Source: Dehalococcoidia bacterium
GTDB taxonomy: Bacteria; Chloroflexota; Dehalococcoidia; Lucifugimonadales; Australimonadaceae
Direction: 5' to 3'
DNA length: 64,000 bases
Assembly (NCBI GenBank): GCA_965248065.1
Contig: OZ252088.1
Coordinates: 1,406,368 to 1,470,367, forward strand
In this document: positions 1,666-61,097 of the stretch, one piece after another
Numbering within the stretch: position 1 is the first letter of the stretch
Layout of the letters: every line of letters starts with the position of its first letter
Translations under genes and position numbers: made by a program
Notes under the pieces: generated by a model
Told to the model about the DNA's origin: nothing
The model's database searches: none
What the model saw: only the letters and a program-made list of their open reading frames with translations

Positions 1666-1714
1666 ACCGTGGCCGACGCTCCGGTCAAGCCTTTAGGCAG
1701 GGCCGCTACCTAGG

Positions 1715-3475: not shown

Positions 3476-3567
3476 TATGAGTGGAGGCAGGTGACGTTGG
3501 ACTGCCCCAGACGGGTGTAGTAGAGGTCGAGGCAGGCCTATCCTCAACGGAGCGCCTGGCCCGGGGG

Positions 3568-3576
3568 TGCTATACT
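3568..3576 (+). promoter_or_regulatory. candidate extended -10 element TGCTATACT; would give a near-leaderless CDF mRNA
   Basis: TGCTATACT ends 9 nt before the ATG at 3586. No SD lies between them. Confidence 0.3.
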
Positions 3577-3585
3577 GCTCTGTAA

Positions 3586-4575: not shown

Positions 4576-4667
4576 GTCGGGGGACTTACTGCAGTCGTAT
4601 TCTAGGAACGCGGCGCCCTGCGAGAGCGTTCGCCCCGGCGGGGCGCAAGCGCTAGTCGCTCTCTGTC

Positions 4668-5816: not shown

Positions 5817-6109
5817 GAAGCCATTGACCCTTATCTCCCTGGCCAGCGACGCGCTGGAAACGCCTAGGGCAACTGTGCGGCAGCTTACGGGCGCGATTAT
5901 CGAGGGTCAAGCCAGCACTCCCTTCTTGGACGGCTACAGCCGCGCATCGCCTTGGCCTGCGAGACACTGCGGTAGCAGCGCGGCGGATTGACCGAAGACT
6001 GGTATGCGCCCGGGAAGGACGCCGCGTCAGCGAGCCGACACTCTTCTCCATTTGAGCCCCGAGTGTGGAGCCGCAATGTCGTTGAACAAATCGATAGAAG
6101 GGGAGTCGC

Positions 6110-6138
6110 TTGACACACTGGCTATATGGCCCTATAAC
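6110..6138 (+). promoter_or_regulatory. near-consensus sigma-70-type promoter TTGACA-N17-TATAAC
   Basis: TTGACA at 6110-6115, a 17-nt spacer, then TATAAC at 6133-6138. It lies about 155 nt upstream of the binding-protein ATG at 6294. Confidence 0.45.
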
Positions 6139-6293
6139 GGCTGGCACGCTACAACATCGATAGCGCAGCCCTGCGGCGATTGCAGTTGCTGTTCAACGGG
6201 AGGACTGATGCGGCGAGCGATAAAGCAGACGTTGGCCGTGGGCTCTTCTCGTGAACGTCAGGCATTGGTCGCTCGTCCGAGAAAGGAAGTTGC

Positions 6294-7454
6294 ATGACCA
6301 GATTATCTAGATCAGTGGTGTTGGGAGCGTTCGCCGGAATACTGGCGCTATTGGCTGCCGCCTGTGGCTCGGATCCCACCCCGACTCCTGCGCCGACGCC
6401 CACTCCGGTGATAGTCGAGCTGGTCGTCACCGCAACCCCGACGCCTGAAGGGCCTCACGTAGCGGAATGGACCGCCGCGCAAGAGGCGGCAAAGAGCGAG
6501 AAGCTCGTCATCAACACCAAACCCGGAGACGGCGCGAACTTCCTTATAAAGGAGTTCAAGAGGACGTTCCCGGACATAGAGGTAGAGCACACCACGGCCT
6601 TCCCGAGCAGGTTCGGGCCGCGGATCATTGCCGAGCAGCAGGCCGGTCGGTACCTCTGGGACGTGATGGCCAACTTCGCCGGGAACATGACCAACGTCAT
6701 GGCGCCGGCCGGCACATTCCAAGATCTCGAACCCTTCCTGATTCTGCCCGAGGTGACGGACGACGATAACTGGTACTTAGGGTTCGACGTGTATGGAAAT
6801 GACGCGAGCGGGCTCGACCAAGTCTTCTACTTCGCCATGGACCTGCGCGGCGGCTTCTATGTAAACCGTGACTTGGAGCCCACCGGCCTGACAGACGTCG
6901 AGGAGCTGCTCGACCCCAAGTGGAAGGGGAAGATCCTTATCCATGATCCCGCGGCGAACGGCGGAGGCACCGCCGCCATTGGATCGCTCCTCGCATTCAA
7001 GGGCGAAGAGTTTGTCACCAAGCTCCTCTCGGACCAAGAGCCAATCATCATTGAAGACCCGCGCACCACAGCGGAATGGATGGTCACGGAACGCGTGCCC
7101 ATCGGCATCGGCGTGTATGACAACTTCTTGGACGAGTTCAACACTGAGGGCGTAGGCCTCGCCATCGAGCGAAGATTGGGTTGGGGACACATCAGCCCGG
7201 ACGGGTTTGCCGTGTACAAGAATGCTCCGCACCCCAATGCGACCAAGGTGTTTGTCAACTGGTTCCTCAGCGACGACGGTCAGCGCATCTGGGCCTCAAC
7301 GATGGCCAACAGCCGGCGGAAGGGGATGCCGCATCACCCGTTCCAGAATCACCCGGACTACGACCGCATCGAGAGCTACACGGTGCCTGACTTCGAGAGC
7401 AATTCGAGTCTCTTGAAGGACACCATCGCGTTGGCTGAGCGGCTCAGGAACTAG
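6294..7454 (+). CDS. ABC transporter substrate-binding lipoprotein (family 1, iron(III)-like)
   Basis: Lipobox LLAAAC-G followed by the PTPTPAPTPTP linker. Size and composition fit a periplasmic-binding-protein fold. GAAAGGAAG RBS. Confidence 0.75.
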   Translation: MTRLSRSVVLGAFAGILALLAAACGSDPTPTPAPTPTPVIVELVVTATPTPEGPHVAEWTAAQEAAKSEKLVINTKPGDGANFLIKEFKRTFPDIEVEHTTAFPSRFGPRIIAEQQAGRYLWDVMANFAGNMTNVMAPAGTFQDLEPFLILPEVTDDDNWYLGFDVYGNDASGLDQVFYFAMDLRGGFYVNRDLEPTGLTDVEELLDPKWKGKILIHDPAANGGGTAAIGSLLAFKGEEFVTKLLSDQEPIIIEDPRTTAEWMVTERVPIGIGVYDNFLDEFNTEGVGLAIERRLGWGHISPDGFAVYKNAPHPNATKVFVNWFLSDDGQRIWASTMANSRRKGMPHHPFQNHPDYDRIESYTVPDFESNSSLLKDTIALAERLRN

Positions 7455-7480
7455 CCGGGTCTCGGCCCAGAGACGCCAGA

Positions 7481-7512
7481 GAAGACGCCCCCGCGCAAGC
7501 GGGGGCGTCTTC
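7481..7512. terminator. bidirectional stem-loop terminator between convergent genes
   Basis: GAAGACGCCCCCGC-gcaa-GCGGGGGCGTCTTC, a 14-bp perfect stem. It sits between the end of the + strand gene at 7454 and the end of the - strand gene at 7601. Confidence 0.5.
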
Positions 7513-7600
7513 GGTTCTCGCAGCTTGGGAATGTGAGAGACGCCGTTACCGTATCGCCCTCCGGGCGGAACGAGGCCAGCCCACGGGCGAGAGTGGACCC

Positions 7601-8872
7601 TTAGGTGACGCTCTTCGCGGGATCCATGAGAGGCATCAGGGCGGCTCGCCAGTCCTCATCGGCCCCAAGAGTGCACTCTGCGGCTCGGAGCTCATAATAG
7701 GTAGCTGCCGTTCCCGCGGGCTCACCGCCGTCTTTGACGACGTCAACCGCTTGCTGAAGCATTTTCCGCGTCACGATTATGGCTCGGTCAGCTTGACCGA
7801 GGTGTTCCTGTTCGCGATCGACCACGCCCATTGATTCCTGCACAGCGCGGTCCTGGGTGTTGATGCCGTATATCCCAGTGAACGTGTCGGTCTTCTGGAC
7901 CTGGCGGTCAATCATCCAATCGTTCGACTTGTTGCGGTAGCTGCGGAAGCCGTTGCGGGGGTCAATGTCGGTGGTGAAGCTATTGCCGCTCACCTGAGGG
8001 TCTTGGGCTTCTTCGGCTAGAGGCGCGTCCCCGTAAGCGTAATACCAGTTGTAGACCATTACGCTCCCATCGTCGATGGGCACCCAGTGATGCCCGTGCA
8101 CCTCAGCTAACCCCAGTCCGGGCGGCCGGAGCTGAGTGAACGGCATGATGAAGTGATAGCCCCTCACGTACCGGCGGCCCTCGCCCAACTGGCGCACTCC
8201 GAAATAGCGGTAGCCGTAGTCTGTCTTGTCCAGCTCGATAAGTGGGGCGCTCCCCTGCACGAACGCGCTGCTGTAGGCGGTCCCGGGAAGCGTCACGCCT
8301 TCGCGGAGCCGGCGGTGCATTATCGGCGCGTGGGACGTGTCCACGCCTCCCTCTAGCGCCTGAAGCCAGTTGCACTCTTGGACCACTTTCGTAAGAGTCC
8401 GTTGCTCCTCGGGCACGCGAGTCCACTCAAAGTTTGGCAGCGGAGGCTTGCTCTCCGGCGGCCCCATGTAAGTCCAGGCAAGACCGCCCATCTCCTCTAC
8501 CGGATAGGACTTGGCGCGCACCTTTTGGCTGAAGTCGAACTGGCCGGGTTCGTTCATCTGGTCCACGCATTGCCCCGTCACGTCGAACTTCCAGCCGTGA
8601 TAGACGCACCGGAGCCCGTTCTCCTCGTTTCGACCTAGCCAGAGGGACGCGCGGCGGTGGGGACAGAACTCGGCCAGAAGCCCGATCCTTCCGCTGGTGT
8701 CACGAAACGCGACCAAGTCCTCTCCGAGCAGCCTAACGCGGACTGGCGGGCAATCGGGCTCCGGGAGCTCCATACTGAGCAACGCCGGAATCCAATACCG
8801 TCGCATGGCTTCTCCCATCGGGGTGCCAGGGCCCGTACGAGTAAGGCGCTCGTTCTGCTCAGCCGTCAGCAT
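7601..8872 (-). CDS. Rieske non-haem-iron oxygenase alpha subunit, paralogue 2
   Basis: CPHRRASL...CVYHGWKF Rieske motif and DTSHAPIMH iron motif. The N-terminus MLTAEQNERLTRTGPGTPMGE resembles the other paralogues. Confidence 0.85.
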   Translation of the reverse strand: MLTAEQNERLTRTGPGTPMGEAMRRYWIPALLSMELPEPDCPPVRVRLLGEDLVAFRDTSGRIGLLAEFCPHRRASLWLGRNEENGLRCVYHGWKFDVTGQCVDQMNEPGQFDFSQKVRAKSYPVEEMGGLAWTYMGPPESKPPLPNFEWTRVPEEQRTLTKVVQECNWLQALEGGVDTSHAPIMHRRLREGVTLPGTAYSSAFVQGSAPLIELDKTDYGYRYFGVRQLGEGRRYVRGYHFIMPFTQLRPPGLGLAEVHGHHWVPIDDGSVMVYNWYYAYGDAPLAEEAQDPQVSGNSFTTDIDPRNGFRSYRNKSNDWMIDRQVQKTDTFTGIYGINTQDRAVQESMGVVDREQEHLGQADRAIIVTRKMLQQAVDVVKDGGEPAGTAATYYELRAAECTLGADEDWRAALMPLMDPAKSVT

Positions 8873-8965
8873 TGGTCACCTCGCCCTGCGTGCAGTATGG
8901 GCATTGGTCCGTCCGCCCCGGACATAGCCAGCCAAAAACCATGGTAGAGACCTCCCGGAGCGCAG

Positions 8966-10387
8966 TCAACGAGTTGCTCCGCGCGTGGGGAGGCCCCACC
9001 GCGACAGCGCACCTGGAATCGCTGCAACGTCATCGAGGTCTTCGAGCCGGTCGATGAGATCAACCACCGATTCGAGCGCCGAATGCGAGAGTGGCAAGGG
9101 GGCATGAGACGCACAGTCCATGAACTTATCGATGAGTTGCTCACGGCTCAACGGCCTCTTCGGGTGCCCAAGGGGCACGTCGACGCGCTTCGCCACCGTG
9201 ACGCCTGAGCCAAGAACGACCTCCACAATGCCCGCGTGCGGCGACAGCGAGGGGTCGAGTTCGTGGCTGCCTTTCGCCGCTATCTTCAGCGCTTCCGGCT
9301 GGCCGAGGCCCCCCGGTGTGAAGTCGGACAGCGTCACGGCGCCGTTGGCCAACGCTTTGGCCGTGCCAAAGAAGATGCTGTTGGCCGCCGAGGCTGCACT
9401 ACTGGGACGGCGGCGCTCCTCCACCGGCTCGAACCAGTTTCTGGAGCTGGGGTGGCCGGTGAGCCTGAGCTCGACGATAGCCTCGGGGTCGATGCCGTCG
9501 TCGTTGCGGAGCTGGAGACCGGCCTCGATGAACGCGTGGATTAGCCCGCTCGTCGGCCAGGGTTTGAACGATGAATCGAGCGTGTAGTACGTCGTCCCCA
9601 GCCCCTCGGTGATGATGGAGGCGTCGTACACGCCGTCGTAGAACATGGCGAAGAAACCTGCTTCGCCTTCGAGTGCATCGCAGCGCGCGCCGAGGCCTTC
9701 CTGAGCGAGAAGCGCCGCCAGCACGCCTCCTTGATTGGGGAAGGCTGCGTAGATTCCCTTGGCGGGAGGGTCGCCGTAGACCACCACCTGCCGGCTTCCT
9801 GACGCCTGCATCAGCATGAGCCCAAGGGCGCTGTCGAGCTGGTCGACCGAAAGCTCGAGCACCCGGCCCGCGCTAAGCGTGGCGCCCAGATAGCTGAGGA
9901 GCTGACCCTCCAGGAAGCGGCCCTTCGTGTTCACCCCCGCGCGGAGCAGGGCTATCACGGACCGCATCTCGACCTCGACTCCGGCCACGAGGGCGTTGAT
10001 GAACTCCTTCCCGCTGACCCCTCCCCGGCGTTCGGCGACTGCGAGAGGCGCCGTGAGCGCGAATGCTCCCGGGTGTCCTCCCTCCGCGCCGATGGCGTCG
10101 TAGTTCAGCGCGTGCACCATCGCGCCGTTGGCGAGGCCCGCCATCACAGCGGACACCTTCTCGCCGTACCCTAATACCGTGCTCTCCGGTCGCCCCCCAG
10201 AGCTAATGACGACTGCCGCCGTCTCAGGTCCCCCGTCGCCGAGTGTCCCGCCGGCAAGCGCGGCGCCTAGCGAGTCCAGCGTCAGCCTCTTCGCTACCTC
10301 GATTACGTCGTCCGGAAGGTCACTGTAGCGGCTGGCGGCGACGTACTCGCAGACGGTGCGCGTGAGTCCGGGTGTGCTGGCGGTCAT
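8966..10387 (-). CDS. MmgE/PrpD family protein (2-methylcitrate dehydratase-like)
   Basis: Start trimmed to the ATG at 10387, which has a GGAGGAGGC RBS. The track ORF 8966..11218 runs on in frame through the upstream gene. N-terminus MTASTPGLTRTVCEYVAASRYSDLPDDVIEVAKRLTLDSLG is typical of PrpD/MmgE. Confidence 0.8.
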   Translation of the reverse strand: MTASTPGLTRTVCEYVAASRYSDLPDDVIEVAKRLTLDSLGAALAGGTLGDGGPETAAVVISSGGRPESTVLGYGEKVSAVMAGLANGAMVHALNYDAIGAEGGHPGAFALTAPLAVAERRGGVSGKEFINALVAGVEVEMRSVIALLRAGVNTKGRFLEGQLLSYLGATLSAGRVLELSVDQLDSALGLMLMQASGSRQVVVYGDPPAKGIYAAFPNQGGVLAALLAQEGLGARCDALEGEAGFFAMFYDGVYDASIITEGLGTTYYTLDSSFKPWPTSGLIHAFIEAGLQLRNDDGIDPEAIVELRLTGHPSSRNWFEPVEERRRPSSAASAANSIFFGTAKALANGAVTLSDFTPGGLGQPEALKIAAKGSHELDPSLSPHAGIVEVVLGSGVTVAKRVDVPLGHPKRPLSREQLIDKFMDCASHAPLPLSHSALESVVDLIDRLEDLDDVAAIPGALSRWGLPTRGATR

Positions 10388-10428
10388 GTTGCCTCCTCCA
10401 GGTCGGTAAACCGGGAGCCGTTGCCGCG

Positions 10429-11187
10429 TTAGTTCGGAGCTTGAAAGTCCGGGACGCCTTCTGCGATAGCTGAGGTCCAGCTGTCGAGGTTGGTTACCCA
10501 ACCGTAGCGTCGCTTGATGGCGAACAGCGCTTGCTCGTGGGTCTCGGGAACGATTCCCCCACAGCAGTCCTCGATGAGGATTGGAAAATACTCGTGAAAG
10601 TATGCGTCCCTGGCGGTGGCTTCCACGCAGGTGGGCGTACCGATGCCGGTGATGAAGAGGTGCCGCACTCCGAGGCGCTTCAGCACCAGGTCGAAATCCG
10701 TCCGCTGGAAGGCGCTGTAGAGGTTCTTCGCGATGACGTACTCGCCTTCCAGTGGAGTCAGATCCTCGATAATCTCCCCGCCCCAAGTGCCGTCGATGCC
10801 CACGGCGCGCTCCATTGACGGTTCGCTCAGGTCTGCTCGATAGGCGGCGCTTTTCCAGTACCAAGGCGAGTCGGCGCCGGCCCGCATCAAAGGGTCGGCG
10901 GGCAGGACCATACGGGTGAACAGGGCTGGCATGCCCGCTGCGCGGCCGTACGCCAGGGCGCGCTGGATCGGCTCGATGACACGCTTGCCGTGCTCCGTGT
11001 CCACACCCGTGAGGTCGAAGAACCCGCCCGGTTTGATGTCGTAGTTCTGCATGTCGATCACACACAGCGCGCTCTTCGACACATCGAAGCTGATCGGTTC
11101 GGGCTCGGCTCTGAGGTTCAGTTGCATCATGCACCCGCTGTCGGCAATCTCTCTCGGACGGTATAGCCGCCGCTCTGAGAATGTCAA
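10429..11187 (-). CDS. isochorismatase-family cysteine hydrolase
   Basis: CVIDMQN motif and catalytic-Cys context GIGTPTCVEATARDA. 4-nt ATGA overlap with the upstream LLM gene. Confidence 0.8.
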   Translation of the reverse strand: MTFSERRLYRPREIADSGCMMQLNLRAEPEPISFDVSKSALCVIDMQNYDIKPGGFFDLTGVDTEHGKRVIEPIQRALAYGRAAGMPALFTRMVLPADPLMRAGADSPWYWKSAAYRADLSEPSMERAVGIDGTWGGEIIEDLTPLEGEYVIAKNLYSAFQRTDFDLVLKRLGVRHLFITGIGTPTCVEATARDAYFHEYFPILIEDCCGGIVPETHEQALFAIKRRYGWVTNLDSWTSAIAEGVPDFQAPN

Positions 11188-12158
11188 TCGTCCGGACGTA
11201 GAACGTCCTGTCCGGCAAGGGCGCGCAGCGCGGAGCTGAAAATCTCGATAGCTCGAAGCGGGTCTTCGCCGGCGAACTGTACGCGCGCGATGAAATGGCG
11301 CGTCTTCGTTTGTTCCGCCAAGGAGAGGACCTTCGCAGCCGCCTCCTCAGGAACGCCCGGTATGACTATAGCGTCAACCAGATGGCGTAATTGCGCCGAC
11401 GACAGGTCGGACACTTTGGAGACGTCTGAGAGCGATGGCGCCCGTTCCCTCAAGACTCTGGAGAACACCCTGTTGCGACTCAGCAAGTTGGAGAGGGCAT
11501 ACCCGGCGGCGCTTTCGTACGCCTGTGCTTCGGACTCCGCCATGAACACCGGTAATCCGAGCGCGACAGCCACCCTGTTTGAATGTCGCCCCGCGTTGCG
11601 AGTCCCTGCTTCCACATGGTTCACCGCTGCCGCCACTACTTCTGGATCGACGCCGACCATGGCGTAAACGCCGTCGGCTACGGCCCCCGCGGCCTCCAGC
11701 ATCCTGGGGCTGCTGGCGTTGACGTAAACAGGCACGCGCGCCGACGCAAACTCGGTGGCTAAGGTCCGGAGAATCGTCTCCACAGCCCTCGTCATCTGGA
11801 GCGCCGTGGCTTGGGGTTCCCCCACGTACTGGACGGCCGCCTGCCCGCTGCCAACTACTAGGCGGGCCCGGCCTGGCGCAAGCTCCCCGAGAGTCGCCCC
11901 AAGAGTCGCCAGCATCTTGGGATTGCGTGACACCGGGTTCGTCACCGATGGAAAGAGAGTCACCCGGGCTGTCCGCTGGGCGGCGAGCGCGAGCCTCACG
12001 AACACATCCCTGCCGGTGTGGGGGTGGTCGGGCATCCCCACACCGGCGAAACCCAGCTCCTCGGCCCTTACTGCAAATCGGGACGATTCAGAAAGAGGCA
12101 GATTCGTTGGGTCGTTGACATCGATGCGCAGCCCTGGGTTCGTTGCGGGATAGGACAT
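11184..12158 (-). CDS. LLM-class (luciferase-like) flavin/F420-dependent oxidoreductase
   Basis: N-terminal EELGFAGVGMPDHPH and overall TIM-barrel LLM composition. Confidence 0.8.
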   Translation of the reverse strand: MSYPATNPGLRIDVNDPTNLPLSESSRFAVRAEELGFAGVGMPDHPHTGRDVFVRLALAAQRTARVTLFPSVTNPVSRNPKMLATLGATLGELAPGRARLVVGSGQAAVQYVGEPQATALQMTRAVETILRTLATEFASARVPVYVNASSPRMLEAAGAVADGVYAMVGVDPEVVAAAVNHVEAGTRNAGRHSNRVAVALGLPVFMAESEAQAYESAAGYALSNLLSRNRVFSRVLRERAPSLSDVSKVSDLSSAQLRHLVDAIVIPGVPEEAAAKVLSLAEQTKTRHFIARVQFAGEDPLRAIEIFSSALRALAGQDVLRPDD

Positions 12159-12441
12159 CGAGGACGCCTCTTGAAGAATCTATGATAGGCAAATCGCTCC
12201 TGCCATATTACCGGCAATCTCATGGCGCCCACCACCGGCAACGCGGATGGGACTGCCGATTGCCACTCTCGACCTAATCAAGAAGCTTCGCGCCCCTCAG
12301 GTTTGTTCTGTGGGTGGGAGGGAGCCGACGCCTGGCCGCGATGGGCGAGCGGTCCAACAAGGGGTCGTAGCGCGTCTTCACGGGCACATACGCAGCGGCT
12401 ATCGGCCCGGACCTCGCCATCTTGGAGCGCTACCGAGTTCG

Positions 12442-12807
12442 TTAGGCCTCCCCACGGCTGGGCCCGACCCTCACGTCCCTGATGTTTGGGTCGCTGCCGG
12501 CTACGTGAAGAATCTGCAAGGGTTCCGTTCCTGAGCTCTCGAACCAGTACTTGAAGCCATGGGGCATCAGGATTCCCTGGTGCACTCCCAGCTCCGCCAG
12601 CAAGACGTCGCCCTCGCCGTAGAACTTCACGGCGCCTTGCATGACCATGAAGAACCCGTCGCTTACCGTATGGCTGTGCAGCCGGTTCTCCCCGCCTTCC
12701 TTCACGAGCTGCATGTCTGCCGCCAATCGGTCCGTCTTGCAAAGGACTGTGAGGTTCTTCGCTCGGTCGTTATCGGGACGTTGGTAACTGAACTGTTGTA
12801 GTTCCAT
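12442..12807 (-). CDS. cupin-domain protein
   Basis: Start trimmed to the ATG at 12807 (MELQQF), which has a GGAGGCGGAAGGGG RBS. Cupin motif GGENRLHSHTVSDGFFMVMQGAVKFY. Confidence 0.7.
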   Translation of the reverse strand: MELQQFSYQRPDNDRAKNLTVLCKTDRLAADMQLVKEGGENRLHSHTVSDGFFMVMQGAVKFYGEGDVLLAELGVHQGILMPHGFKYWFESSGTEPLQILHVAGSDPNIRDVRVGPSRGEA

Positions 12808-13088
12808 TCCCCTTCCGCCTCCCTTTACCGCCTGTAGCCTCCCTTTACTGCCGGTGGGATGAATCCCGCGCCCCACTCCCTCATTTCCGCTGATTGTAGC
12901 GTAGGACCCAGGGCGACAAGTAAGAGATTCTGGCTCATGCGAGAGGCCGGCGAATCAGGGGCGCCGGGCCGAGGTCCATGTCGCATCTGTGACATTTGCC
13001 CGTTGCGCGAACGAACCCCCATTCCCTACCCTGTCTCCCATGGCCCAACAGACCCGCCCCCTCGCCCCTCCGATGCCCGCGAGCCGCC

Positions 13089-13159
13089 TGTCGCAAAGTG
13101 TCGCATTTGTGTCGCAAAGTGTCGCATTTGCTGTCGCAGAGTGTCGCATTACTGTCGCG
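13089..13159. repeat. array of seven TGTCGCA(/G) heptamers spaced 10-12 bp; three copies of a unit of about 21 bp
   Basis: Heptamers start at 13089, 13099, 13110, 13120, 13132, 13142 and 13153. Unit TGTCGCAAAGTGTCGCATTTG occurs twice, then CTGTCGCAGAGTGTCGCATTAC. Solitary copy at 12979-12985. Confidence 0.8.
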
Positions 13160-13371
13160 AAACGGAGCTGTACTGTCGGACCCGAAACGCGCGCTCAGGA
13201 GTGAAATAGCATGGAAAACCAGGAAAAAGCGACAGTTTCGAGAAAAACCGCGCTCACAGCGAAGGGCCTGCGGCGCTACGGGCGGGTAGGGCGGGCGCGC
13301 CGATTCCTAGGGCCTCCGCCTGCGCGGGAATGTGCGGAAGGGGGTATGCAGGGTTCCGCATACGCCGAAGC

Positions 13372-13516
13372 GTAACTGTTCAGTGTTGATGAGTTTAGGT
13401 TCGTGGTGAGCCTGTCGAACCACGCCGCCCGCCACCCCCCTCCGGTCCCCCTCCTTACCAAGGAGGGGCTAGGGGTGGTTCCGCTGGCATTCGCCTCACC
13501 AAGCCTGAACAGTTAC
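13372..13516. mobile_element. 145-bp MITE derived from the IS66-family element at 19682-21105
   Basis: Terminal inverted repeats GTAACTGTTCAG...CTGAACAGTTAC. Left end GTAACTGTTCAGTGTTGATGAG matches the IS66 right end GTAACTGTTCAGAGTTGATGAG. Flanking 8-mers GCCGAAGC and GCTGAAGC match at 7 of 8 positions. Confidence 0.65.
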
Positions 13517-13585
13517 GCTGAAGCGGGGTAAGTGCAGCCGAAGCCCTCCGGCATGTATCGTAGGCAGGCCTAGAAGCGTCCGGAT

Positions 13586-13888
13586 TTGCCGGAAGACGGC
13601 GCCTACGGCAACGTTGGCCGCGACCTGGACGAGTTCTTCGGCGGGAGCTATGAGACCGATTTGGCCAACCCTGACTTCGTCAAGTTCGCCGAGTCGTTCG
13701 GCGCGGTCGGCATGAGAGCGGAGAACCCCATGGACCTGGAGAGATTGCTGCCCCTGGCGCTGGAGACCCAGGCGCCGGTGATCATCGACGTGCCTGTCGG
13801 ACACATACCGCTGCCGCGCGCCAAGATGTTGGCGCACTTGCCTTCCGTCCCTTGGGCCGTGCCCCAAGAAGGACTGATTGGGTCCTGA
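13586..13888 (+). pseudogene. C-terminal remnant of a TPP-dependent enzyme (acetolactate synthase-like large subunit)
   Basis: Translation ...GAYGNVGRD...NPDFVKFAESFGAVGMRAENPMDLERLLPLALETQAPVIIDVPV matches only the last ~100 aa of ALS-like enzymes. An in-frame stop lies at 13571. The MITE is immediately upstream. Confidence 0.65.
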
Positions 13889-14023
13889 CCGCGGCGATTC
13901 GCGCTGAAACCTTCCGTTGACTGACCTCGAACCGTCTTCCGTTAAGCGGCACGCGGCGGCAGGGAAGGGTAGGATAGCCGCCACGGCGCCTATAACCTTG
14001 GAAACCACCCGGGGTAGCCCAGC

Positions 14024-15689
14024 ATGAGCTACGACCTCCGAACGTTCCGCGGCGACCTCTTTGGCGGCGTCACGTCGGCAGTCGTGGGGCTGCCCGTGGC
14101 CCTGGCCTTCGGCGTGGCGTCGGGTCTCCGGGCGATTGCCGGCGTCTACGGGGCGATCGCGGTGGGCTTCTTCGCGGCGGTGTTCGGCGGCACCCGGTCG
14201 CAGATATCCGGCCCCACAGGGCCGATGGCCGTGGCCATGGCGGTCATCGTCACGAGCCACACGGCCAGCCTCGCCGAGGCGTTCACCATAAGTCGTCATG
14301 GCCGGCCTGATTCAGATTCTGCTGGGCGTTCTGAGGATCGGCCGGTTCGTGGCCTACACGCCGTACTCGGTGATTTCCGGGTTCATGTCCGGCATCGGCG
14401 TCATCATCATCTTGCTGCAGACGCTGCCCTTCCTGGGGCTCCCGGCGCAGAGGGCGGCCCGATGGGGACGGTCCGCGCCTGGCCGAGCGGATCAGGGATA
14501 TCAACCTCAGCGCGTTCGCCATCGCCGCCGTCACGCTCTTGGTCGGGGTGCTCTGGCCCAACCGGCTCAAGAAGTTCCTGCCTCCTACTCTGGCGGCGTT
14601 GATTGCCGGAACGCTCCTGGGAGTCCTGTGGCTGACCAACACGCCCGTCATCGGCGACGTCCCTACTGGCCTGCCGAGGCCGCAGGCGTTGGACCTGTCC
14701 CCGGACGTGCTGGCGCGCGCCCTGCAGCCGGCGTTGATCATCGCGCTGCTCGGCTCCATCGACAGCCTGCTTACCTCCCTGATAGCCGACTCGATGACCC
14801 GCACGCGCCACAATCCGGACCGTGAGCTGGCGGGGCAGGGCATCGGGAACGCGATTGTGGGGCTCATCGGCGGCCTGCCCGGCGCGGGGGCCACTCTGGG
14901 CACGGTGGTCAACATACGCGCCGGCGGACGGTCGCGCGTCTCGGGAGTGTTGCGCGCGGCGATCCTGCTGGCGCTGGGCCTAGGGAAGTACGTCGAGGCG
15001 ATTCCCCACGCGGTCCTCGCCGGCATCCTGATGAAAGTAGGCTGGGACATCATAGATTGGCGCTTTATCACCCGGATTCGCCGCGTTCAGCGGGAGCACC
15101 TCTTGGTGATGCTCATCACGCTCATACTCACGGTGTTCCTCGACCTGGTCACCGTCGTGGCGATAGGGCTGATCGCCGCGGGCATGGCCCACGCGCGGCA
15201 GTTCGAGCGGTTGGAGCTGGACAGCGTGGTCTCCGTGCCCCTGCTGGACAGGGGCTTCCTCGTGGATCAGGAGAACGAGAACGAGGTGGACCTTTCTCCG
15301 CGCGCGTCGGCCTGGTGGCGCTCAGGGGCAGCTTTTCCGTCGCGTCCGCCAACAAGATGATCAACACGATCAGCGTGGACATCAGAGACCACGAGGTTGT
15401 GATTCTCGACTTTTCCGACACCGTCTACTTGGACGACAGCGCCGCCCTCGTCGTGGAGCAGATGATCGATGTCGCCATAGACGAGGATACGGAGTGCATC
15501 GTGATGGGTCTCGAGGGCCTGCCTGCGACCACGCTGCAGGCGCTCAACGTTCTGCGCCGTGTTCCCTCCGACCACTTTGTCTTGAATCGGGACGGCGCAA
15601 GAGAGGTCGCGAAGCGGATACTCGCAGAGCGGGAGCCGCGCGGTTTAGCGCCGGAGCTGGTCGGCTTGGCGGCGGCTGTATCGCTCTAG
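14024..15689 (+). pseudogene. SulP-family anion permease with C-terminal STAS domain, disrupted by about four frameshifts
   Basis: SulP-like sequence is spread over the track ORFs 14024.., 14298.., 14539.. and 15057... Frame changes occur near 14290, 14445, 14480 and 15297. STAS tail is VALRGSFSVASANKMINTISVD... Confidence 0.75.
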
Positions 15690-18968: not shown

Positions 18969-19205
18969 CTAACCGCCCTCCCAGAGGCGCAGCTCCTCTT
19001 CAGGGAGCGGGTCGAAGAAGAAGCTGTCGGGGATAGCAAGCAACTCCGGGTGGGAGCCGAATTGCGGTTTCCTCTGCGGCTGGCAGCTGACCAGCCGGGC
19101 GACGGGCTTACCGTTGCGGGCGATGATGACTTCCCCGCCCGCCTCCACCTGCGCAAGCAGCCGCGATAACTGGGACTTCGCCTCGTGGACATTCACGGTT
19201 GTCAT
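18969..19205 (-). CDS. Phd/YefM-type antitoxin
   Basis: MTTVNVHEAKSQLSRLLAQVEAGGEVIIARNGKPVARLV is a typical Phd/YefM N-terminal domain. 3-nt gap to vapC. Confidence 0.8.
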   Translation of the reverse strand: MTTVNVHEAKSQLSRLLAQVEAGGEVIIARNGKPVARLVSCQPQRKPQFGSHPELLAIPDSFFFDPLPEEELRLWEGG

Positions 19206-19278: not shown

Positions 19279-19527
19279 CGCCCCCGTCCAGCGGCGCGCG
19301 CGGGCACGCTCCTGGGCCGGCGACGCTTGGTACCCGTCCGTTCGCAGCGCGTTCCGCTTCAGCTCCCGAGCCACGGTCGATGCCGCGCGATCCAGAGTTG
19401 TAGCGACTTGCCGGACCGAGGAGCCCTTGGCACGTAAGCGGGCAATCTCACACCGTTCCTCAATGCAGAGCTGTCTGTATTCCATGGCAACACCCTAATC
19501 TGGTGTTGCACTTCGTTTGTGGATTCA
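19279..19527 (-). mobile_element. truncated IS30-family element (left end plus first ~70 codons of the transposase)
   Basis: Near-identical to 50973-51220 of the intact copy (MEYRQLCIEERCEIARLRAKGSSVRQVAT.LDRAASTVARELKRNALRTDGYQASPAQERARARRWTGA). Homology stops near 19279. Confidence 0.75.
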
Positions 19528-19681
19528 GGGAACCTCGCAGCGGCGCGGTAGCGACGCGATCCCTCCCCCGCCCCCCTCCGCTCCGGTCCCCTCGCCCGTC
19601 TGCTCCGGCCTCCTCTCCCGTCTGCGGGAGAGAGTTAGAGAGAGGGTCTGCGGGAGAGGGCTAGGGAGAGGGTCTGCGACA

Positions 19682-42277: not shown

Positions 42278-42709
42278 CGGTTTTTCCTCCTGGGTTTACG
42301 CTGACATTACCTGGGCATGCGATACGTTATACGCATGCAAAGCCCGTTCGGATTCATCTGGTGAAATCTCGCGCGGCAAGGTACCGGCGCAAGGCAGGAG
42401 TGTCAATTGCCCCGCCCCCACTCGTCATTCCCGCTCCCCCTCCGTCATTCCCGCGCAGGCGGGAACCTCGCGCCCAACCCCCTCCCGTCTGCGGGAGGGG
42501 ACGCGCAAGCGCAGCGAAGCGCGGGGGAGGAGAAGCGGCGGCGCGCAGACCTCCCCCCGTCATAACCCGCCGCGCCCCACGTACCTGTAGGGGCGTCCCT
42601 TGTGGGCGCCCCCGCCCAATAGGTTCGCCGTCCCCAACGCTCCCGTCCCCTCCTTGCCAAGGAGGGGCTAGGGGTGGTTCCGTCTGCGCGGGGGAGGACA
42701 CCCACCCCC
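42278..42709. repeat. intergenic repeat mosaic
   Basis: Palindrome at 42447-42466, GC-hairpin module at 42481-42540, CCCCTCCTTGCCAAGGAGGGG module at 42647-42681. Confidence 0.75.
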
Positions 42710-42861: not shown

Positions 42862-44394
42862 ATCAAGCTCCCACGCCCCAAGGACACCCCCATCGACCTC
42901 TCACCCTACCGCGACGACCCCCTCGGCTTCGTCAAAGACATCCTCTCCGGATCAGGGACGCCCTACGCCAAGCAGGAAGAGCTGCTCCGCGCCCTCGTCA
43001 GCGAGAAGCGCCGCGTCTCCGTTGTCGGATGCAACTCCTCCGGCAAGGACTGGGCCGCCGCTCGCGCCATACTCTGGTGGATCGAGACACGCCCCAAAGC
43101 CAAGGTCATCGTCACCGGACCCACCCTCCGGCAGGTCAAGGAGATCGTCTGGGAGGAGCTCCGCGCCGCCCACGCCGCCGCCAAACACCGGCTCTCCGGC
43201 GCCGTCCGCGTCGGCGAGTACCGCGCCGGCCCCGACCGCGTCGGCCTCTGCATCACCTCCAACAACCAGCACAACCTCCAGGGCTTCCACTCACCCGAGC
43301 TCCTCGTCATCGTCACCGAGGCCCAGGGCGTCAAGCAGCCCTACTTCGAAGCGCTCAAACGCCTCAACCCCAAGAAGATGCTCCTGTTGGGCAACCCCCT
43401 CAGCCTCACCGGCGAGTTCTACGACTCCCATCACGGCAAGAGCCCCCTGTACGAGCGCGTCTCCATCTCGGCCTACGACTCCCCCAACGTCCAAGAGGGC
43501 CGCCTCGACGCCCTCCCCGGCCTCGTCACGCCCGAGGACATGGAGGAGCGCCGCCAGGAGTGGGGCCCGGACTCCCCCCTCTACATCGCGTCGATCCTCG
43601 GCCAGTTCCCCGAAGCCCTCGAAGACTCCCTCACCTCCCGCCCCCACGTGGACGCCGCCATCGAGCGCTGGCGCCGCGAGTCCCCTTCCGTCATTCCCGC
43701 TCTCTCTTCCGTCATTCCCGCGCAGGCGGGAACCTCGCAGCCCATCCCCCTCCTTACCAAGGAGGGGCTAGGGGTGGTTCCGTCTGCGGGAGGGGACGCG
43801 CGAGCGCAGCGAAGCGCGGGGGAGGCGGCCCCCCTCATCCCGCCCAGCGACGGCCCCCACCTCAACCAGCCCTGGCGCATGGGCGTCGATGTCGCCCGGT
43901 TCGGCAACGACAAGTCTGTCATCTGCCTCCGGCGCGGCGACCGCGTCGAGCGCATCATCGCCTTCGAGCGCAAGGACACCATGCGCCTCGCCGACGAGGT
44001 CCGCGAGCTCGCCGAGACCCTGCGCGTCCCCGCCGTCTTCGTCGACGAGACCGGTGTCGGCGGAGGCGTGGTCGACCGCCTGAAGCAGCTCCGCGTCCCC
44101 GTCATCGGCGTCGAGGGGGGAGGCAGGGCCTACCGCCCCGCCCAGTTCGCCGACATGCGGGCCGAGACGTTCTGGGAGGTGGCCCGCCGCCTCCGCGAGG
44201 GCCAGATGTCCCTCCCGCCCGACGACGACCTTGCGGGCCAGCTCCTCGCCCAGCGCTACGACATCTCGTCGGCGGGGCGCATCCACCTCGAAAGCAAGGC
44301 GACCCTCCGCCGCCAAGGCGTCCCCTCCCCCGACAAAGCCGACGCCCTAGCCCTCGCCTTCATGGAGCCCCCCAACATGAACGTATGGTTCTAA
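42862..44394 (+). CDS. phage terminase large subunit (orphan; no canonical start codon; carries a repeat insertion)
   Basis: The continuous frame runs from the stop at 42739-42741 to 44394. ATPase part has Walker A-like VVGCNSSGKD and Walker B-like LLVIVTEAQG. Nuclease part has MGVDVARFGNDKSV, VFVDETGVGGGV and SPDKADALALAF. No in-frame ATG, GTG or TTG occurs before 43378. GGAAGGAGGA lies 4 nt upstream of an in-frame ATC at 42862. Confidence 0.65.
   Translation: MKLPRPKDTPIDLSPYRDDPLGFVKDILSGSGTPYAKQEELLRALVSEKRRVSVVGCNSSGKDWAAARAILWWIETRPKAKVIVTGPTLRQVKEIVWEELRAAHAAAKHRLSGAVRVGEYRAGPDRVGLCITSNNQHNLQGFHSPELLVIVTEAQGVKQPYFEALKRLNPKKMLLLGNPLSLTGEFYDSHHGKSPLYERVSISAYDSPNVQEGRLDALPGLVTPEDMEERRQEWGPDSPLYIASILGQFPEALEDSLTSRPHVDAAIERWRRESPSVIPALSSVIPAQAGTSQPIPLLTKEGLGVVPSAGGDARAQRSAGEAAPLIPPSDGPHLNQPWRMGVDVARFGNDKSVICLRRGDRVERIIAFERKDTMRLADEVRELAETLRVPAVFVDETGVGGGVVDRLKQLRVPVIGVEGGGRAYRPAQFADMRAETFWEVARRLREGQMSLPPDDDLAGQLLAQRYDISSAGRIHLESKATLRRQGVPSPDKADALALAFMEPPNMNVWF
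43684..43830. repeat. repeat mosaic of about 147 bp inserted in frame inside the terminase gene
   Basis: Contains the half palindrome GTCATTCCCGC, the full palindrome at 43714-43733, the CCCCTCCTTACCAAGGAGGGGCTAGGGGTGGTTCC module at 43747-43781 and the GC-hairpin module at 43783-43830. It is translated as PSVIPALSSVIPAQAGTSQPIPLLTKEGLGVVPSAGGDARAQRSAGEA. Confidence 0.75.
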
Positions 44395-44637
44395 CCATGC
44401 CCCGCCGTTGCTTAACCCTCCGTCATTCCCGCGCCCTCATCCGTCATTCCCGCGCAGGCGGGAACCTCGCAGCGGCGCGACAGCGCCGCGGTCCCTCCCC
44501 CTCTCCCGTCTGCGGGGAAGAGCTAGAGAGGGCACCCCAACGAGACGGTTGCCCGGCGCAAGGTCCGCGCCTATCCTGCCAATCTCCTCTCCCTGCAATG
44601 GAGAAGAGGGCTAACGTGAGACCCAAGGAGGTCCGCA
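44395..44637. repeat. intergenic repeat mosaic
   Basis: Half palindrome at 44421-44432, full palindrome at 44446-44465, hairpin CTCCCGTCTGCGGGGAAGAG. Confidence 0.7.
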
Positions 44638-50168: not shown

Positions 50169-50579
50169 CCTCCCGTAGACGACGCGTGATGCAAATTGAC
50201 GCGGGGGAGTGGGGGTCGATGAGGTCGAATCGACTCCCGTCGGCGCATCGCACGACCGCAATGGCTCGTTTTGATCCAAAGATGTCTCATCCATCTCACT
50301 CGTAACTTTCCCCGGCCTACGAGTGCGCGGGGGCTGTCTTACCGCTTCGGGTGCGCCACTAAGGTCTCATTTGGTCTCATTTGGTCTCATTTTACTCCTG
50401 AGCACGAGCCCGGGCGCCTTCGGCAGCGGGGTCTCGTGCGGAACCACCCCTAGCCCCTCCTTGGTAAGGAGGGGGACGGCGCGTAAACCAGTGTAGGGAG
50501 AGCGGGGGTGTTCGGGGAAGGGGCAAGTGTCAGTCTCCGCCGCGTCAGCAATTTCGCATCACGCGTCGTAGACGGGAGG
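50169..50579. mobile_element. non-autonomous TIR-bounded element (~0.4 kb), copy A
   Basis: Left end CCTCCCGTAGACGACGCGTGATGCAAATTGACGCGG (50169-50204). The complement of the right end is CCTCCCGTCTACGACGCGTGATGCGAAATTGCTGACGCGG (50540-50579). Internal GGTCTCATTT x3 at 50363-50392. No conserved ORF. Confidence 0.6.
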
Positions 50580-50580
50580 G

Positions 50581-50972
50581 GATTTTCGAGGCAATCCCTC
50601 ATGTGGGGCTCGCCTCACACCGCAACCGACGAAAATAGGGTGGCCGATACCTGGATTCCCGCCTGCGCGGGAATGACGGGGGAAGGACCGCGCCGCTGTC
50701 GCGCCGCTGCGAGGTTCCCGCCTGCGCGGGAATGACGGAAGGGGGCGCGGGGTGACGGGGGAAGTCTGCGCGTCGCCTCCCCCGCGCTTCGCTGCGCTTG
50801 CGCGCGTCCCCTCCCGTCTGTGCGGAAGGGGGATTTTCGAGGCAATCCCTCATGTGGGGCTCGCCTCACACCGCAACCGACGAAAATAGGGGGGCCGATA
50901 CCTGGATTCCCGCCTGCGCGGGAATGACGGGGGAGAGGGATCGCTGCGCTGTCGCGCCGCTGCGAGGTTCCC
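50581..50972. repeat. tandem copies of a ~250-bp composite repeat unit (second copy interrupted by IS30)
   Basis: Units start at 50581 and 50831 (GATTTTCGAGGCAATCCCTCATGTGGGGCTCGCCTCACACCGCAACCGACGAAAATAGG...). Palindromes at 50655-50674, 50714-50733 and 50906-50925. Confidence 0.8.
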
Positions 50973-51996
50973 TGAATCCACAAACGAAGTGCAACACCAG
51001 ATTAGGGTGTTGCCATGGAATACAGACAGCTCTGCATTGAGGAACGGTGTGAGATTGCCCGCTTACGCGCCAAGGGCTCCTCGGTCCGGCAAGTCGCTAC
51101 AGCTCTGGATCGCGCGGCATCGACCGTGGCTCGGGAGCTGAAGCGGAACGCGCTGCGAACGGACGGGTACCAAGCGTCGCCGGCCCAGGAGCGTGCCCGC
51201 GCGCGGCGCTGGACGGGGGCGCGGCTGGAACGGGACGAGGGGTTGCGGGAGCGGGTCTTGGCGGGCCTGAAGTGGGGGTGGTCGCCGGAGCAGGTCGCCC
51301 ATGAGATGCGCAGAGAGGAGGGCCGGACGGTGACCTCGGACGAGAGCATCTACCGGTTCGTCTACGCCCAGGCCGCGCGGCACAAGGACCATGATTGGCG
51401 GCGCTACTTGCCGAGGGCGAAGTGGAAGCGGGGAAGGCGGGGCCGCAGGGGGGGAAGCTCGGTTTCCTTCATCCCCCTCCGGAGGGCGCTCTCGGAGCGG
51501 CCGGCGGTGGCGGCCGACCGGCGGACCTTCGGGCACTGGGAGGCGGACACGATGCAGTTCGGGAGGTCGGGAGAGGTGGTGTTGGCCCTGCAGGAACGCT
51601 CCTCGCGCCTCTTGCTTCTCGCGCGTGCGCCGTCGAAGGAGGCGGGGCCGATCGCGGAGTCCATCGCCCGGATGCTGGGGCCGTTGCCGCCGGAGTTTCG
51701 CCAGACGGTGACCTTCGACAATGGGACCGAGTTCACCCGTCACTACGAGCTCCACCGGTTGGGCATCGAGACGTTCTTCTGCGACACGTACTCGCCGTGG
51801 CAGAAGGGGGGAGTGGAGAACGCGATCGGCCGGCTGCGGCGGTTCCTGCCGCGGGGGACGAATCTGGGGGAGGTGTCGGATGAGCGGTTTGCGCTGATCG
51901 GGCAGGCGTACAACAATACGCCGCGCAAGTGCCTGGGCTACCGGACACCGGCGGGGGTCGTCGAGGAGCAGGTGTTGCACTTCAAATGTGGATTCA
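50973..51996 (+). mobile_element. intact IS30-family insertion sequence
   Basis: IRL TGAATCCACAAACGAAGTGCAACACC at 50973-50998. The IRR complement TGAATCCACATTTGAAGTGCAACACC at 51971-51996 matches at 23 of 26 positions. Single transposase ORF. Confidence 0.85.
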
Positions 51997-52019
51997 CCTT
52001 CCCGCCTGCGCGGGAATGA
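51015..52019 (+). CDS. IS30-family DDE transposase
   Basis: N-terminal HTH (RAKGSSVRQVATALDRAASTVAREL), HWEADT, TFDNGTEF, YSPWQKGGVEN catalytic blocks. The ORF reads through IRR, and its TGA (52017-52019) lies in the flanking palindrome GGGAATGA. Confidence 0.85.
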   Translation: MEYRQLCIEERCEIARLRAKGSSVRQVATALDRAASTVARELKRNALRTDGYQASPAQERARARRWTGARLERDEGLRERVLAGLKWGWSPEQVAHEMRREEGRTVTSDESIYRFVYAQAARHKDHDWRRYLPRAKWKRGRRGRRGGSSVSFIPLRRALSERPAVAADRRTFGHWEADTMQFGRSGEVVLALQERSSRLLLLARAPSKEAGPIAESIARMLGPLPPEFRQTVTFDNGTEFTRHYELHRLGIETFFCDTYSPWQKGGVENAIGRLRRFLPRGTNLGEVSDERFALIGQAYNNTPRKCLGYRTPAGVVEEQVLHFKCGFTFPPARE

Positions 52020-52217
52020 CGGAGGGGAGGCGCGGGAATGACGGGGGAAGTCTGCGCGCCGCCGCCTCTCCTCCCCCGCGCTTCGCTGCGCTTGCGCGTC
52101 CCCTCCCGCAGACGGGAGTGGGATTGGGACCGCTGCGCTGCCGCGCCGCTGCGAGGTTCCCGCCTGCGCGGGAATGACGGAAGGAGTCGGAAACGACGGG
52201 GAAGGGCTGCGAGGTTC
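51997..52217. repeat. continuation of the interrupted repeat unit plus further mosaic
   Basis: Palindromes at 51998-52017 and 52156-52175. GC-hairpin module at 52047-52117, colinear with 50761-50822. Confidence 0.8.
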
Positions 52218-55258: not shown

Positions 55259-55715
55259 CTGCGCACCTCCGATTCGAGGCTATTGGGTCTTTTCCGGCCC
55301 ATCATACTCCTACGCGGCAAGAGGCGGGCGCTGCGAGGCTCCCCGCCTTCGCGGGGAATATCTCACGTTGGCCTCCCCGCAGACGAGACCTTTGCATGGC
55401 CCTATTATCCGGCGGGCGTAACTCTTCCCACCCACCCGCCCATCATGTTGTGGAGGACACCCCCACGCCCCCGGCAGAGGGGCGTCGCCCCTCTTCGCTC
55501 CCCAGTATTCCAAAGCCGGTCCATGGTCCGACAGGCTCACCGCGAACCTACGGGATGCCTGGATTCCCGCCTGCGCGGGAATGACGGGGCGGGGCTGACG
55601 GCGGGCGGGGCGTTCTCCTCCCCCGCGCTCGCTGCGCTTGCGCGTCCCCTCCCGCAGACGGGAGGGGGTTAGGCGCGAGGTTCCCGCCTGCGCGGGAATG
55701 ACGGAGGGGGCTAGC
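55259..55715. repeat. intergenic repeat mosaic
   Basis: Palindromes at 55563-55582 and 55680-55699, a degenerate one near 55338-55360. GC-hairpin module at 55611-55668. Confidence 0.75.
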
Positions 55716-60725: not shown

Positions 60726-61097
60726 GGACGGGGGTTCGGAGAGGGCGAGGGGTTGGTTGGCCGGCAGACGCGCAGACCCTCTTTCTAGCTCTCTCCCGTA
60801 GACGGGAGAGAGGACCGGAGGAGACGGGGGAGAGGGGCGAGGTTCCCGCCTTCGCGGGAATGACGGATAGGGGGCGCGGGAATGACGGATAGGGGGTTTG
60901 GAGGGGGGCGAGGGCTATGACGAGGGGAAGTCTGCGCGGACGAGGGGAAGTCTGCGCGCCGCCGCCTCTCCTCCCCCGCGCTTCGCTGCGCTTGCGCGTC
61001 CCCTCCCGCAGACGGGAGGGGGGTTCCTGGGTTCCCGCTTTCGCGGGAATGACGGAGAGAGGCGGAGCGCCTATTTTCGAGGGAATGGCGGGAGGGG
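60726..61097. repeat. intergenic repeat mosaic
   Basis: Intact hairpin CTCCCGTAGACGGGAG at about 60793-60808. Palindromes at 60842-60861 and 61031-61050. GC-hairpin module at 60955-61028. Confidence 0.75.

Follow-up and report, generated by a model that had tools for sequence, protein, structure and literature searches.

An IS30-family insertion sequence from a Dehalococcoidia bacterium whose transposase appears to direct insertion to one position and one orientation of an NTS-type host repeat

The stretch of DNA considered here, 64,000 nucleotides from a Dehalococcoidia bacterium (contig OZ252088.1, positions 1,406,368 to 1,470,367; below, the window), contains an insertion sequence (IS) of the IS30 family that interrupts a repeat of the host genome. 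In general plan the element resembles IS30 of Escherichia coli and IS1655 of Neisseria meningitidis, which have a DDE transposase with an N-terminal helix-turn-helix (HTH) encoded by a single open reading frame (ORF), inverted repeats (IRs) of 20-30 bp and a target-site duplication of 2-3 bp. Those of IS1655 were reportedly described by Kiss et al. in 2007. A transposase ORF without an internal stop codon is known from IS870 of Agrobacterium, where the short CTAG target provides the stop. IS30 prefers near-palindromic hot spots of about 20-24 bp and its own IRs (PMC9333248).

Several ISs are known to target repetitive extragenic palindromic (REP) sequences. These are IS1397/ISKpn1 and ISPsy8 of the IS3 family, IS621, ISPpu9, ISPpu10 and ISPa11 of the IS110 family, and ISRm22 of the IS4 family (PMC1525189). 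The REP-IS survey deals with the families IS3, IS110, IS4, IS256 and IS5; for IS1655, an IS30-family member, the association is weak (2/13 and 2/6) (PMC1525189). IS110 members use a different recombinase, which is guided by a bridge RNA (PMC11208160). Specificity borne by the transposase has been shown experimentally for IS1397 and IS621. The repeats that concern us here, known as NTS/SRM, are widespread and are cut as single strands by small GIY-YIG nucleases, Ssn; in Neisseria, Wolbachia and sphingomonads they are linked to the ssn genes (PMC11893778). CGTC-tagged REPs reportedly have no transposase dedicated to them (PMC3733652); dRS3 is the integration site of an IS110-like phage recombinase (PMC1797815). 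Chloroflexota are not among the hosts of this repeat class listed in the CGTC-REP survey (PMC3733652) or in the main text of the Ssn paper (PMC11893778).

We consider it highly probable that the window contains an active-looking IS30-family IS whose DDE transposase steers new insertions to a single position and a single orientation in the host repeat. The element, complete and 1028 bp long, has the following parts.

50971..51998, plus strand: IS30-family IS, complete, 1028 bp, 5'-CCTGAATCCACAAACG...GTGGATTCACC-3', ends fixed by 3-bp direct repeats in 61/73 relatives
50971..50998, plus strand: left inverted repeat (IRL), 28 bp, matching the reverse complement of the right one at 23/28 positions
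50991..51013, plus strand: 8-bp stem-loop GCAACACC-AGATTAG-GGTGTTGC in the 5' leader, 1 nt short of the ATG
51015..52019, plus strand: transposase ORF, 334 aa, with the last 7 codons, including the TGA stop, supplied by the target repeat
51971..51998, plus strand: right inverted repeat (IRR), 28 bp, read through by the transposase ORF

Membership in the IS30 family is clear from the protein, which matches NCBIfam NF033563 (IS30 family transposase) over residues 36-305 (E 3e-70, 237 bits, cut-off 80) and Pfam HTH_38 over N-terminal residues 3-45 (E 3.9e-15). Its match to Pfam rve is sub-threshold (23.6 vs a cut-off of 32.6 bits). The catalytic residues, assigned by motif, are D178 (HWEAD), D235 (TFDNG) and E268 (GGVEN); the 33 residues from the second D to the E give a DD(33)E spacing typical of the family. 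One long ORF fills the element, as in other IS30-family ISs of 1.0-1.7 kb, and the lengths of the IRs (20-30 bp in the family) and of the duplication (3 bp here, 2-3 bp in the family) also agree. The mismatches between the IRs are the two tip bases and positions 13-15, and without the tip 23 of 26 positions match. The left-end sequence TGAATCCACAAACGAAGTGCAACACC is found three times in the window: once at the left end of the IS, once at its right end (in inverted form, 3 mismatches) and once on the minus strand at 19502-19527. A BLAST of the window with the element returned only the full copy and one fragment (19529-19279).

The left flank of the IS ends ...GCTGCGAGGTTC and the right flank restarts with TTCCCGCCTGCGCGGGAATGACGG. 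When they are joined and one TTC is removed, the canonical GCGAGG-TTCCCGCCTGCGCGGGAATGACGG is rebuilt, in agreement with the preliminary description of this DNA, according to which the IS splits a single repeat. The pieces and the comparable uninterrupted copies are as follows.

50962..50970, plus strand: left piece of the split NTS-type repeat (GCGAGG+TTC)
50968..50970, plus strand: target-site duplication TTC, left copy
51999..52001, plus strand: target-site duplication TTC, right copy
51999..52022, plus strand: right piece of the split repeat, TTCCCGCCTGCGCGGGAATGACGG, with hairpin and GACG tag retained, source of the stop codon
50710-50738, 52152-52180 and 44441-44469: intact copies with the left context of the split repeat
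50578..50816, plus strand: uninterrupted composite repeat unit, a paralogous 'empty site', 91% over 251 bp to the rebuilt site

The last of these comparisons was made with a 497-bp rebuilt site and spans the junction, so that the composite unit is indeed colinear across the IS, as had also been proposed. Rebuilt sites at three related loci (L056, L060 and L070) show the pattern seen at the window site.

A truncated second copy with the same junction had been noticed before, and we confirm it.

19279..19529, minus strand: truncated second copy, IS nt 1-251, 3 mismatches (98.8%)
19530..19538, minus strand: left half of another NTS-type repeat (GCGAGG+TTC), abutting the truncated copy

Its junction, ...CCGCTGCGAGGTTC followed by CCTGAATCC, is the same as that of the full copy. 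The two copies differ at 3/251 positions within the IS, whereas their 42-bp flanks show 5 differences (~88% identity) and the sequence further out is unrelated. This indicates two insertions into different repeat copies.

The palindrome that has been split is a real repeat family, as the preliminary description supposed, and one that has already been described. TTCCCGCCTGCGCGGGAATGACGG is present in 18 copies at <=3 mismatches in the window, compared to 0 expected. The 28-nt motif of the Neisseria Transformation Sequence (NTS), CGTCATTCCCGCGMAVGCGGGAATCYRG (PMC11893778), has three exact matches in the window and 11 more with 1-2 mismatches. Read on the opposite strand with its tail, the repeat is CGTC-ATTCCCGC-GCAG-GCGGGAAT-CCAG, and it folds into a hairpin with an 8-bp stem (-8.7 kcal/mol, z -3.3). 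The CGTC tag, the 8-bp stem starting with AT, the 4-nt loop and the CCA tail agree with the description of CGTC-1 REPs (PMC3733652). By these features we identify the host repeat with the NTS/SRM hairpin element of 28 bp; it is at the same time a CGTC-tagged REP and has dRS3 as its 20-bp core. The GACG tag is present on only one side, which gives the repeat an orientation.

50902..50929, minus strand: intact repeat, exact match to the Neisseria NTS motif
50651-50678 and 55559-55586: further exact matches to the NTS motif

For a comparison of insertion sites, 79 related loci were taken from GTDB representative genomes. Both ends could be located in 72 of them, which together with the window copy makes 73 full copies with 59-91% protein identity to the window element. 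Their hosts are about 20 metagenome-assembled genomes (MAGs) labelled Dehalococcoidia, as well as Nitrospirales (L058, L065, L066). If the element is defined as 5'-(C/G/T)C-T.A..(T/C)CACAAACG ... GT.GA(A/T)T(C/T)CACC-3', identical 3-bp flanks are found in 61/73 copies, and the duplicated triplet varies by site (ttc, tgc, tac, ggt, atg, ggg, cgg, ctc, agg, att, atc, tcc). In some lineages every copy starts with TC or GC where others have CC, which means that the outer dinucleotides are part of the element. Unitigs from public runs in Logan stop exactly at 51998, and an IS30 relative from Sphingobium has a similar IR starting GGTGGATTC; both agree independently with these ends.

The preliminary description had placed the IS at 50973-51996 with flanks overlapping by TTCCC or CC. 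Here it has to be corrected: each end lies 2 bp further out, the CC belongs to the IS (50971-51998), and the duplication, measured from several copies as had been suggested, is the 3-bp TTC. Duplications of 5 bp (TTCCC) or 2 bp (CC) do not fit the lineages starting with TC or GC, nor the GGT/GGT and ATG/ATG sites, all of which fit 3 bp only. The outer CC dinucleotides can also not be carried-over junction spacers, since lineages keep distinct left (GC, TC) and right (CC) dinucleotides throughout.

Most of the rebuilt targets obey a common rule. The surroundings differ at all 73 sites, and information content is high from -4 to +24 and at background beyond. An ATGACG tag (<=1 mismatch) lies at +17..+26 on the right side in 63/73 copies and is mirrored on the left side in one. 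A perfect stem of >=5 bp begins where the right flank starts in 51/73. The NTS itself is rebuilt at <=3 mismatches in 38/73, with one single offset throughout, and exactly in 6/73. NTS occur 56 times in 485 kb of flanking DNA on both strands (~0.1 per kb), or 5.8e-5 per position and orientation, and against this background 38/73 at one offset has a binomial P of ~7e-141. The published SRM regular expression recognised only 33/73 rebuilt sites, because many variants have longer loops, and looser criteria were therefore used alongside. An ENA contig (L083) yields a further copy from the window's lineage, with identical junctions. Thus most copies interrupt the repeat, and removal of the IS together with one copy of the duplication rebuilds it. 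The preliminary description had allowed that other copies might sit in unrelated flanks, and they do not.

Insertion is strictly orientation-specific: the target is read as an asymmetric site and not as a simple palindrome. The earlier suggestion that an IS30-type preference for palindromic hot spots is at work holds in so far as the repeat is the target, but the oriented and position-exact insertion goes beyond such a preference. Some of the targets are informative because they are degenerate. Fourteen sites have a perfect duplication but no perfect palindrome, and the following positions are conserved among them.

+18: A in 14/14
+19: pyrimidine in 14/14
+20: G in 13/14
+21: A in 12/14
+22: C in 11/14
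+23: G in 11/14
-1: G in 11/14
+13: C in 11/14

Copies in non-repeat sites (L017, L027, L028, L051 and L052), whose 1028/1034-bp core is directly bordered by perfect 3-bp duplications, still have a tag-like AYGACG. Given that the tag positions stay conserved at degenerate or non-repeat sites, the asymmetric tag together with the adjacent arm, 13-24 bp from the cut, looks like the main recognition determinant. Such a determinant would explain the single orientation.

Several observations weigh against this interpretation or limit its reach. Perfect duplications are missing in 12/73 copies, and the tip bases of the IS are not inverted (CC...CC), which is unusual. About 8-10 of the 73 copies sit in sequence that barely resembles the repeat, so the specificity is strong and not absolute. 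Most sites lie in repeats, and the target logo therefore largely mirrors the conservation of the repeat itself; the role of the tag as main determinant is drawn from the 14 degenerate sites. Exact-match scans gave no orthologous pair of filled and empty sites, and in JGI metagenome contigs the rebuilt empty site and the IS left end had 0 exact matches each. Exact-protein look-ups of the window transposase, of its 99% relatives P0001 and P0002 and of the two genes beside the element matched no contig. In the short Logan contigs of public runs, repeat cross-matches dominate the joints, and neither an empty allele nor an IR-IR junction was called there.

Other explanations of the same pattern have to be weighed. 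If the insertion were random and copies survived purifying selection only in harmless intergenic repeats, insertions there should be near-neutral, as these repeats are intergenic. However, selection of this kind would permit any intergenic position and both orientations, while we observe the same nucleotide and one orientation (63 to 1), with a shared offset in 38/38 NTS-class sites, in flanking DNA that offers just ~0.1 NTS per kb; random insertion is very unlikely. It is also barely conceivable that the conserved flanks are the termini of a longer element with its true ends further out, even though nearly all copies have ~5 bp (left) and ~24 bp (right) in common. These flanks join to a repeat that is found intact, without the IS, at many sites, and the triplet next to the IS tracks the local repeat variant (TGC with TGCCCGC..GCGGGCA; TAC with TACCCGC..GCGGGTA). 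The copies in non-repeat sites are duplicated right at the core, and conservation is at background past -4 and +24, which places the shared flank, a worry already voiced in the preliminary description, outside the element.

The copies might alternatively not be independent, if a repeat-IS-repeat segment had spread by duplication or by recombination between repeats. The window site does lie in a tandemly duplicated composite unit, and the 12/73 copies without matching duplications are consistent with IS-IS recombination. Nevertheless we regard such spread as extremely unlikely: the surroundings of all 73 sites differ, homology outside the IS (5 + 24 bp) is too short for homologous exchange, and the two window copies are 98.8% identical in the IS but only ~88% in their flanks. 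Two Nitrospirales copies (L065 and L066, ~6 kb apart near the beginning of OZ242026.1) share an identical right flank and have different left flanks, which may reflect duplication of the IS together with its right flank. A further alternative reverses the dependence, making the repeats products of the IS family (footprints, solo ends or miniature derivatives) or sequences mobilised by its transposase. CGTC-type REPs are without a known dedicated transposase (PMC3733652), and the tail side of the repeat, CTGGATTC, resembles the right-end tip of the majority lineage (reverse complement GGTGGATTC). This resemblance is missing in the window's lineage (TGAATCC), though, and the repeat is unlike the inner IR block GAAGTGCAAC, which is conserved. 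The repeat accompanies ssn genes, not this IS, in Neisseria, Wolbachia and sphingomonads (PMC11893778), and in one related MAG an Ssn-like gene has an adjoining repeat. All this makes the reversed dependence highly improbable. The idea that the target mimics an IS end is unsupported, as CTGGATTC resembles GGTGGATTC in the majority lineage and not in the window lineage, and the inner IR block agrees with the tag region at ~7/24 positions (counted by hand), which is chance level.

Targeting of the repeat by the element has a consequence for the transposase gene. Its TGA stop (52017-52019) lies 19-21 nt past the IS end, inside the host repeat, as the preliminary description had noted. In none of the lineages compared is there a stop codon inside the right end. 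In 51/73 copies a further six codons of the ORF are read from the target (TTC CCG CCT xCG CGG GAA) before the TGA of the tag ends it. A protein search with the transposase returned 5867 proteins at E <= 1e-60, and tails were read in the best 120 cluster representatives. The commonest lengths among these are 336 aa (51) and 334 aa (14). A recognisable C-terminus is present in 90, and 78 of these have a repeat-encoded tail of the FPPxRE or FLPxQE type; in 56 the protein ends exactly there. Since the right side keeps the hairpin and the tag whole, the stop comes directly after the 3' arm of the stem-loop.

From the fixed position and orientation we infer that the targeting specificity resides in the transposase itself. 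Transposition would proceed by copy-out-paste-in via an IR-IR junction, by analogy with other IS30 members. (A joint from 51998 to 50971 was absent among the joints listed from assembled Logan contigs.) The target is cut with a 3-bp stagger at TTC, in the hairpin arm far from the CGTC tag, and the transposase gene always has its 3' end turned toward hairpin and tag. An N-terminal HTH domain probably reads the tag and would set the active site ~18-20 bp away; HTH-dependent hot-spot targeting by IS30 offers a comparison (PMC9333248, PMC1525189). Potential benefits would be a neutral intergenic landing site, a ready stop codon and a 3' hairpin on the transposase mRNA. Site-specific targeting is what the data show, and that the repeats act as the 'safe haven' of the preliminary description is what we would infer about its benefit.

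A more speculative suggestion is that the IS and the NTS/Ssn system are functionally coupled. The transposase would then read the same CGTC tag and hairpin as Ssn, only insertion in an NTS would complete the element (by giving it a stop, an FPPxRE tail and a 3' hairpin), and the repeat arrays would be dedicated docking sites or traps for this IS30 clade across phyla. We find such a coupling possible but doubtful. A DDE transposase able to recognise, by protein alone, an oriented site of ~24-28 bp would also be a tractable model of site-specific insertion free of guide RNA.

Compared to IS30 and IS1655, then, the hot spot is here a genome-wide host repeat family (NTS/SRM), orientation is strict, the cut is asymmetric in one arm and not at the symmetry centre, and the element itself contributes no stop codon to the ORF. 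IS870 differs in family and target; the stop used here belongs to the tag of a 28-bp repeat and lies 19-21 nt beyond the IS end. With the REP-targeting ISs the element shares palindrome-specific insertion, rebuilding of the repeat on removal of the IS and the location of nearly all copies in repeats (PMC1525189). It differs from them in its family (IS30), in its repeats (CGTC/NTS, not GTAG) and in its hosts (Chloroflexota and Nitrospirota). The likeness of the repeats to NTS/SRM, dRS3/NIME and CGTC-1 REPs extends from the exact 28-nt motif (three sites) to tag, stem, loop, tail and mosaic arrays (PMC11893778, PMC3733652, PMC1797815), yet the known partners of NTS/dRS3 are the Ssn single-strand nuclease and an IS110-like phage recombinase, while here the partner is an IS30-type DDE transposase. 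Full-text literature searches, which covered subscription literature in part and did not cover ISfinder, returned no IS30-family element specific for NTS, dRS3 or CGTC repeats. The closest annotated plasmid-borne IS30-family elements have at most ~46% protein identity. Among the alphaproteobacterial plasmid relatives (~40% identity), the one with ends read, Sphingobium L080, terminates its ORF at a stop codon of its own and is flanked by non-NTS sequence. As far as the plasmid relatives were sampled, the NTS-targeting behaviour looks confined to the closer clade.

These observations extend REP-targeted transposition to the IS30 family, to CGTC/NTS repeats and to Chloroflexota and Nitrospirota. 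NTS/SRM repeats, only recently tied to Ssn nucleases and without a known transposase, turn out to be exploited by a mobile element, and one that depends on its target, which closes its open-ended transposase gene. The ~70 independent insertions make up a large natural dataset from which cut position, orientation rule and probable recognition bases can be defined. There is also a practical use in annotation: an IS end ...CACC, followed by the 3-bp duplicate and an NTS, gives the correct IS boundaries, and the same rule accounts for many 334/336-aa 'transposases' ending FPPxRE.

In the source genome the element seems to have been busy. The window protein is identical to P0127, encoded on a contig of 3,168,340 bp, and at least 61 distinct transposase variants, from three 90% clusters, are found on this 3.17-Mb contig. 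Most full-length variants end FPPARE, FPPSRE, FPLSRE or FPPTRE; these tails match different loops of the repeat, and a few others are unrelated. In the best-matching public runs the k-mer depth of the IS is ~520, compared to ~10 for unique flanks. Some variants (P0004, P0158, P0159 and P0121-P0123) have internal deletions of 47 aa (YAQAAR/RTFGHWEAD) or 8 aa (FGRSGEVV) and several target-encoded tails. Thus defective copies have multiplied as well, presumably through mobilisation in trans.

Some minor observations concern the element and its truncated copy. The leader stem-loop (50991-51013) is perfect, and its 3' arm repeats an inner part of the IRR (GGTGTTGC). It may occlude translation initiation, may regulate translation or may provide an extra binding site for the transposase. 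The truncated copy ends exactly at IS nt 251, and in P0142 of the source genome another copy is nested in the IS at nt 249-251 (GCG), as judged by the tail ...CGFT/ARLERDEG. The truncation thus falls on a weak target inside the IS (CGGGA..GACGA, spaced as usual), a hint of a rearrangement mediated by the transposase, although the breakpoint has no IS end. Directly beside the truncated IS, on the minus strand, there are two ORFs, characterised by sequence alone, and IS remnants seem to be clustered at 19.3-21 kb.

18969-19205, minus strand: Phd/YefM-like antitoxin ORF, 78 aa
18579-18965, minus strand: PIN/VapC-like ORF, 128 aa
19690-21083, minus strand: ORFs resembling an IS66-family transposase (...RCWAHLLRD...), apparently split over two frames

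The window repeats stand in mosaic intergenic arrays with other repeat modules, resembling the NIME arrays of Neisseria (PMC1797815). A second module, GCGTCCCCTCCCGCAGACGGGAG, with its own hairpin CTCCCG-CAGA-CGGGAG, is present five times and always close to NTS copies; together with 'CGAAAATAGG' modules it builds mosaic arrays reminiscent of neisserial NIMEs.

42482-42504, 43777-43799, 52096-52118, 55642-55664 and 60996-61018: copies of the GCGTCCCCTCCCGCAGACGGGAG module

A motif scan of the 64-kb window gave no candidate for Ssn (single-domain GIY-YIG). At a locus of a related MAG (L030) an Ssn-like single-domain GIY-YIG protein of 95 aa is encoded at 2405-2695 on the minus strand (PF01541, E 2.5e-13). 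Beside its gene, at 2822-2848, is the SRM-like repeat CGTCACTCCCGCGAAGGCGGGAGAC, and ~250 bp from the gene a copy of the IS sits in a further repeat. In runs X1-X3, the repeat modules of the interval 50436-52190 reach k-mer depths of 700 to 15,000, and loose ends in the same samples reveal a second IS sub-lineage (TTC followed by CCTAAACT...).

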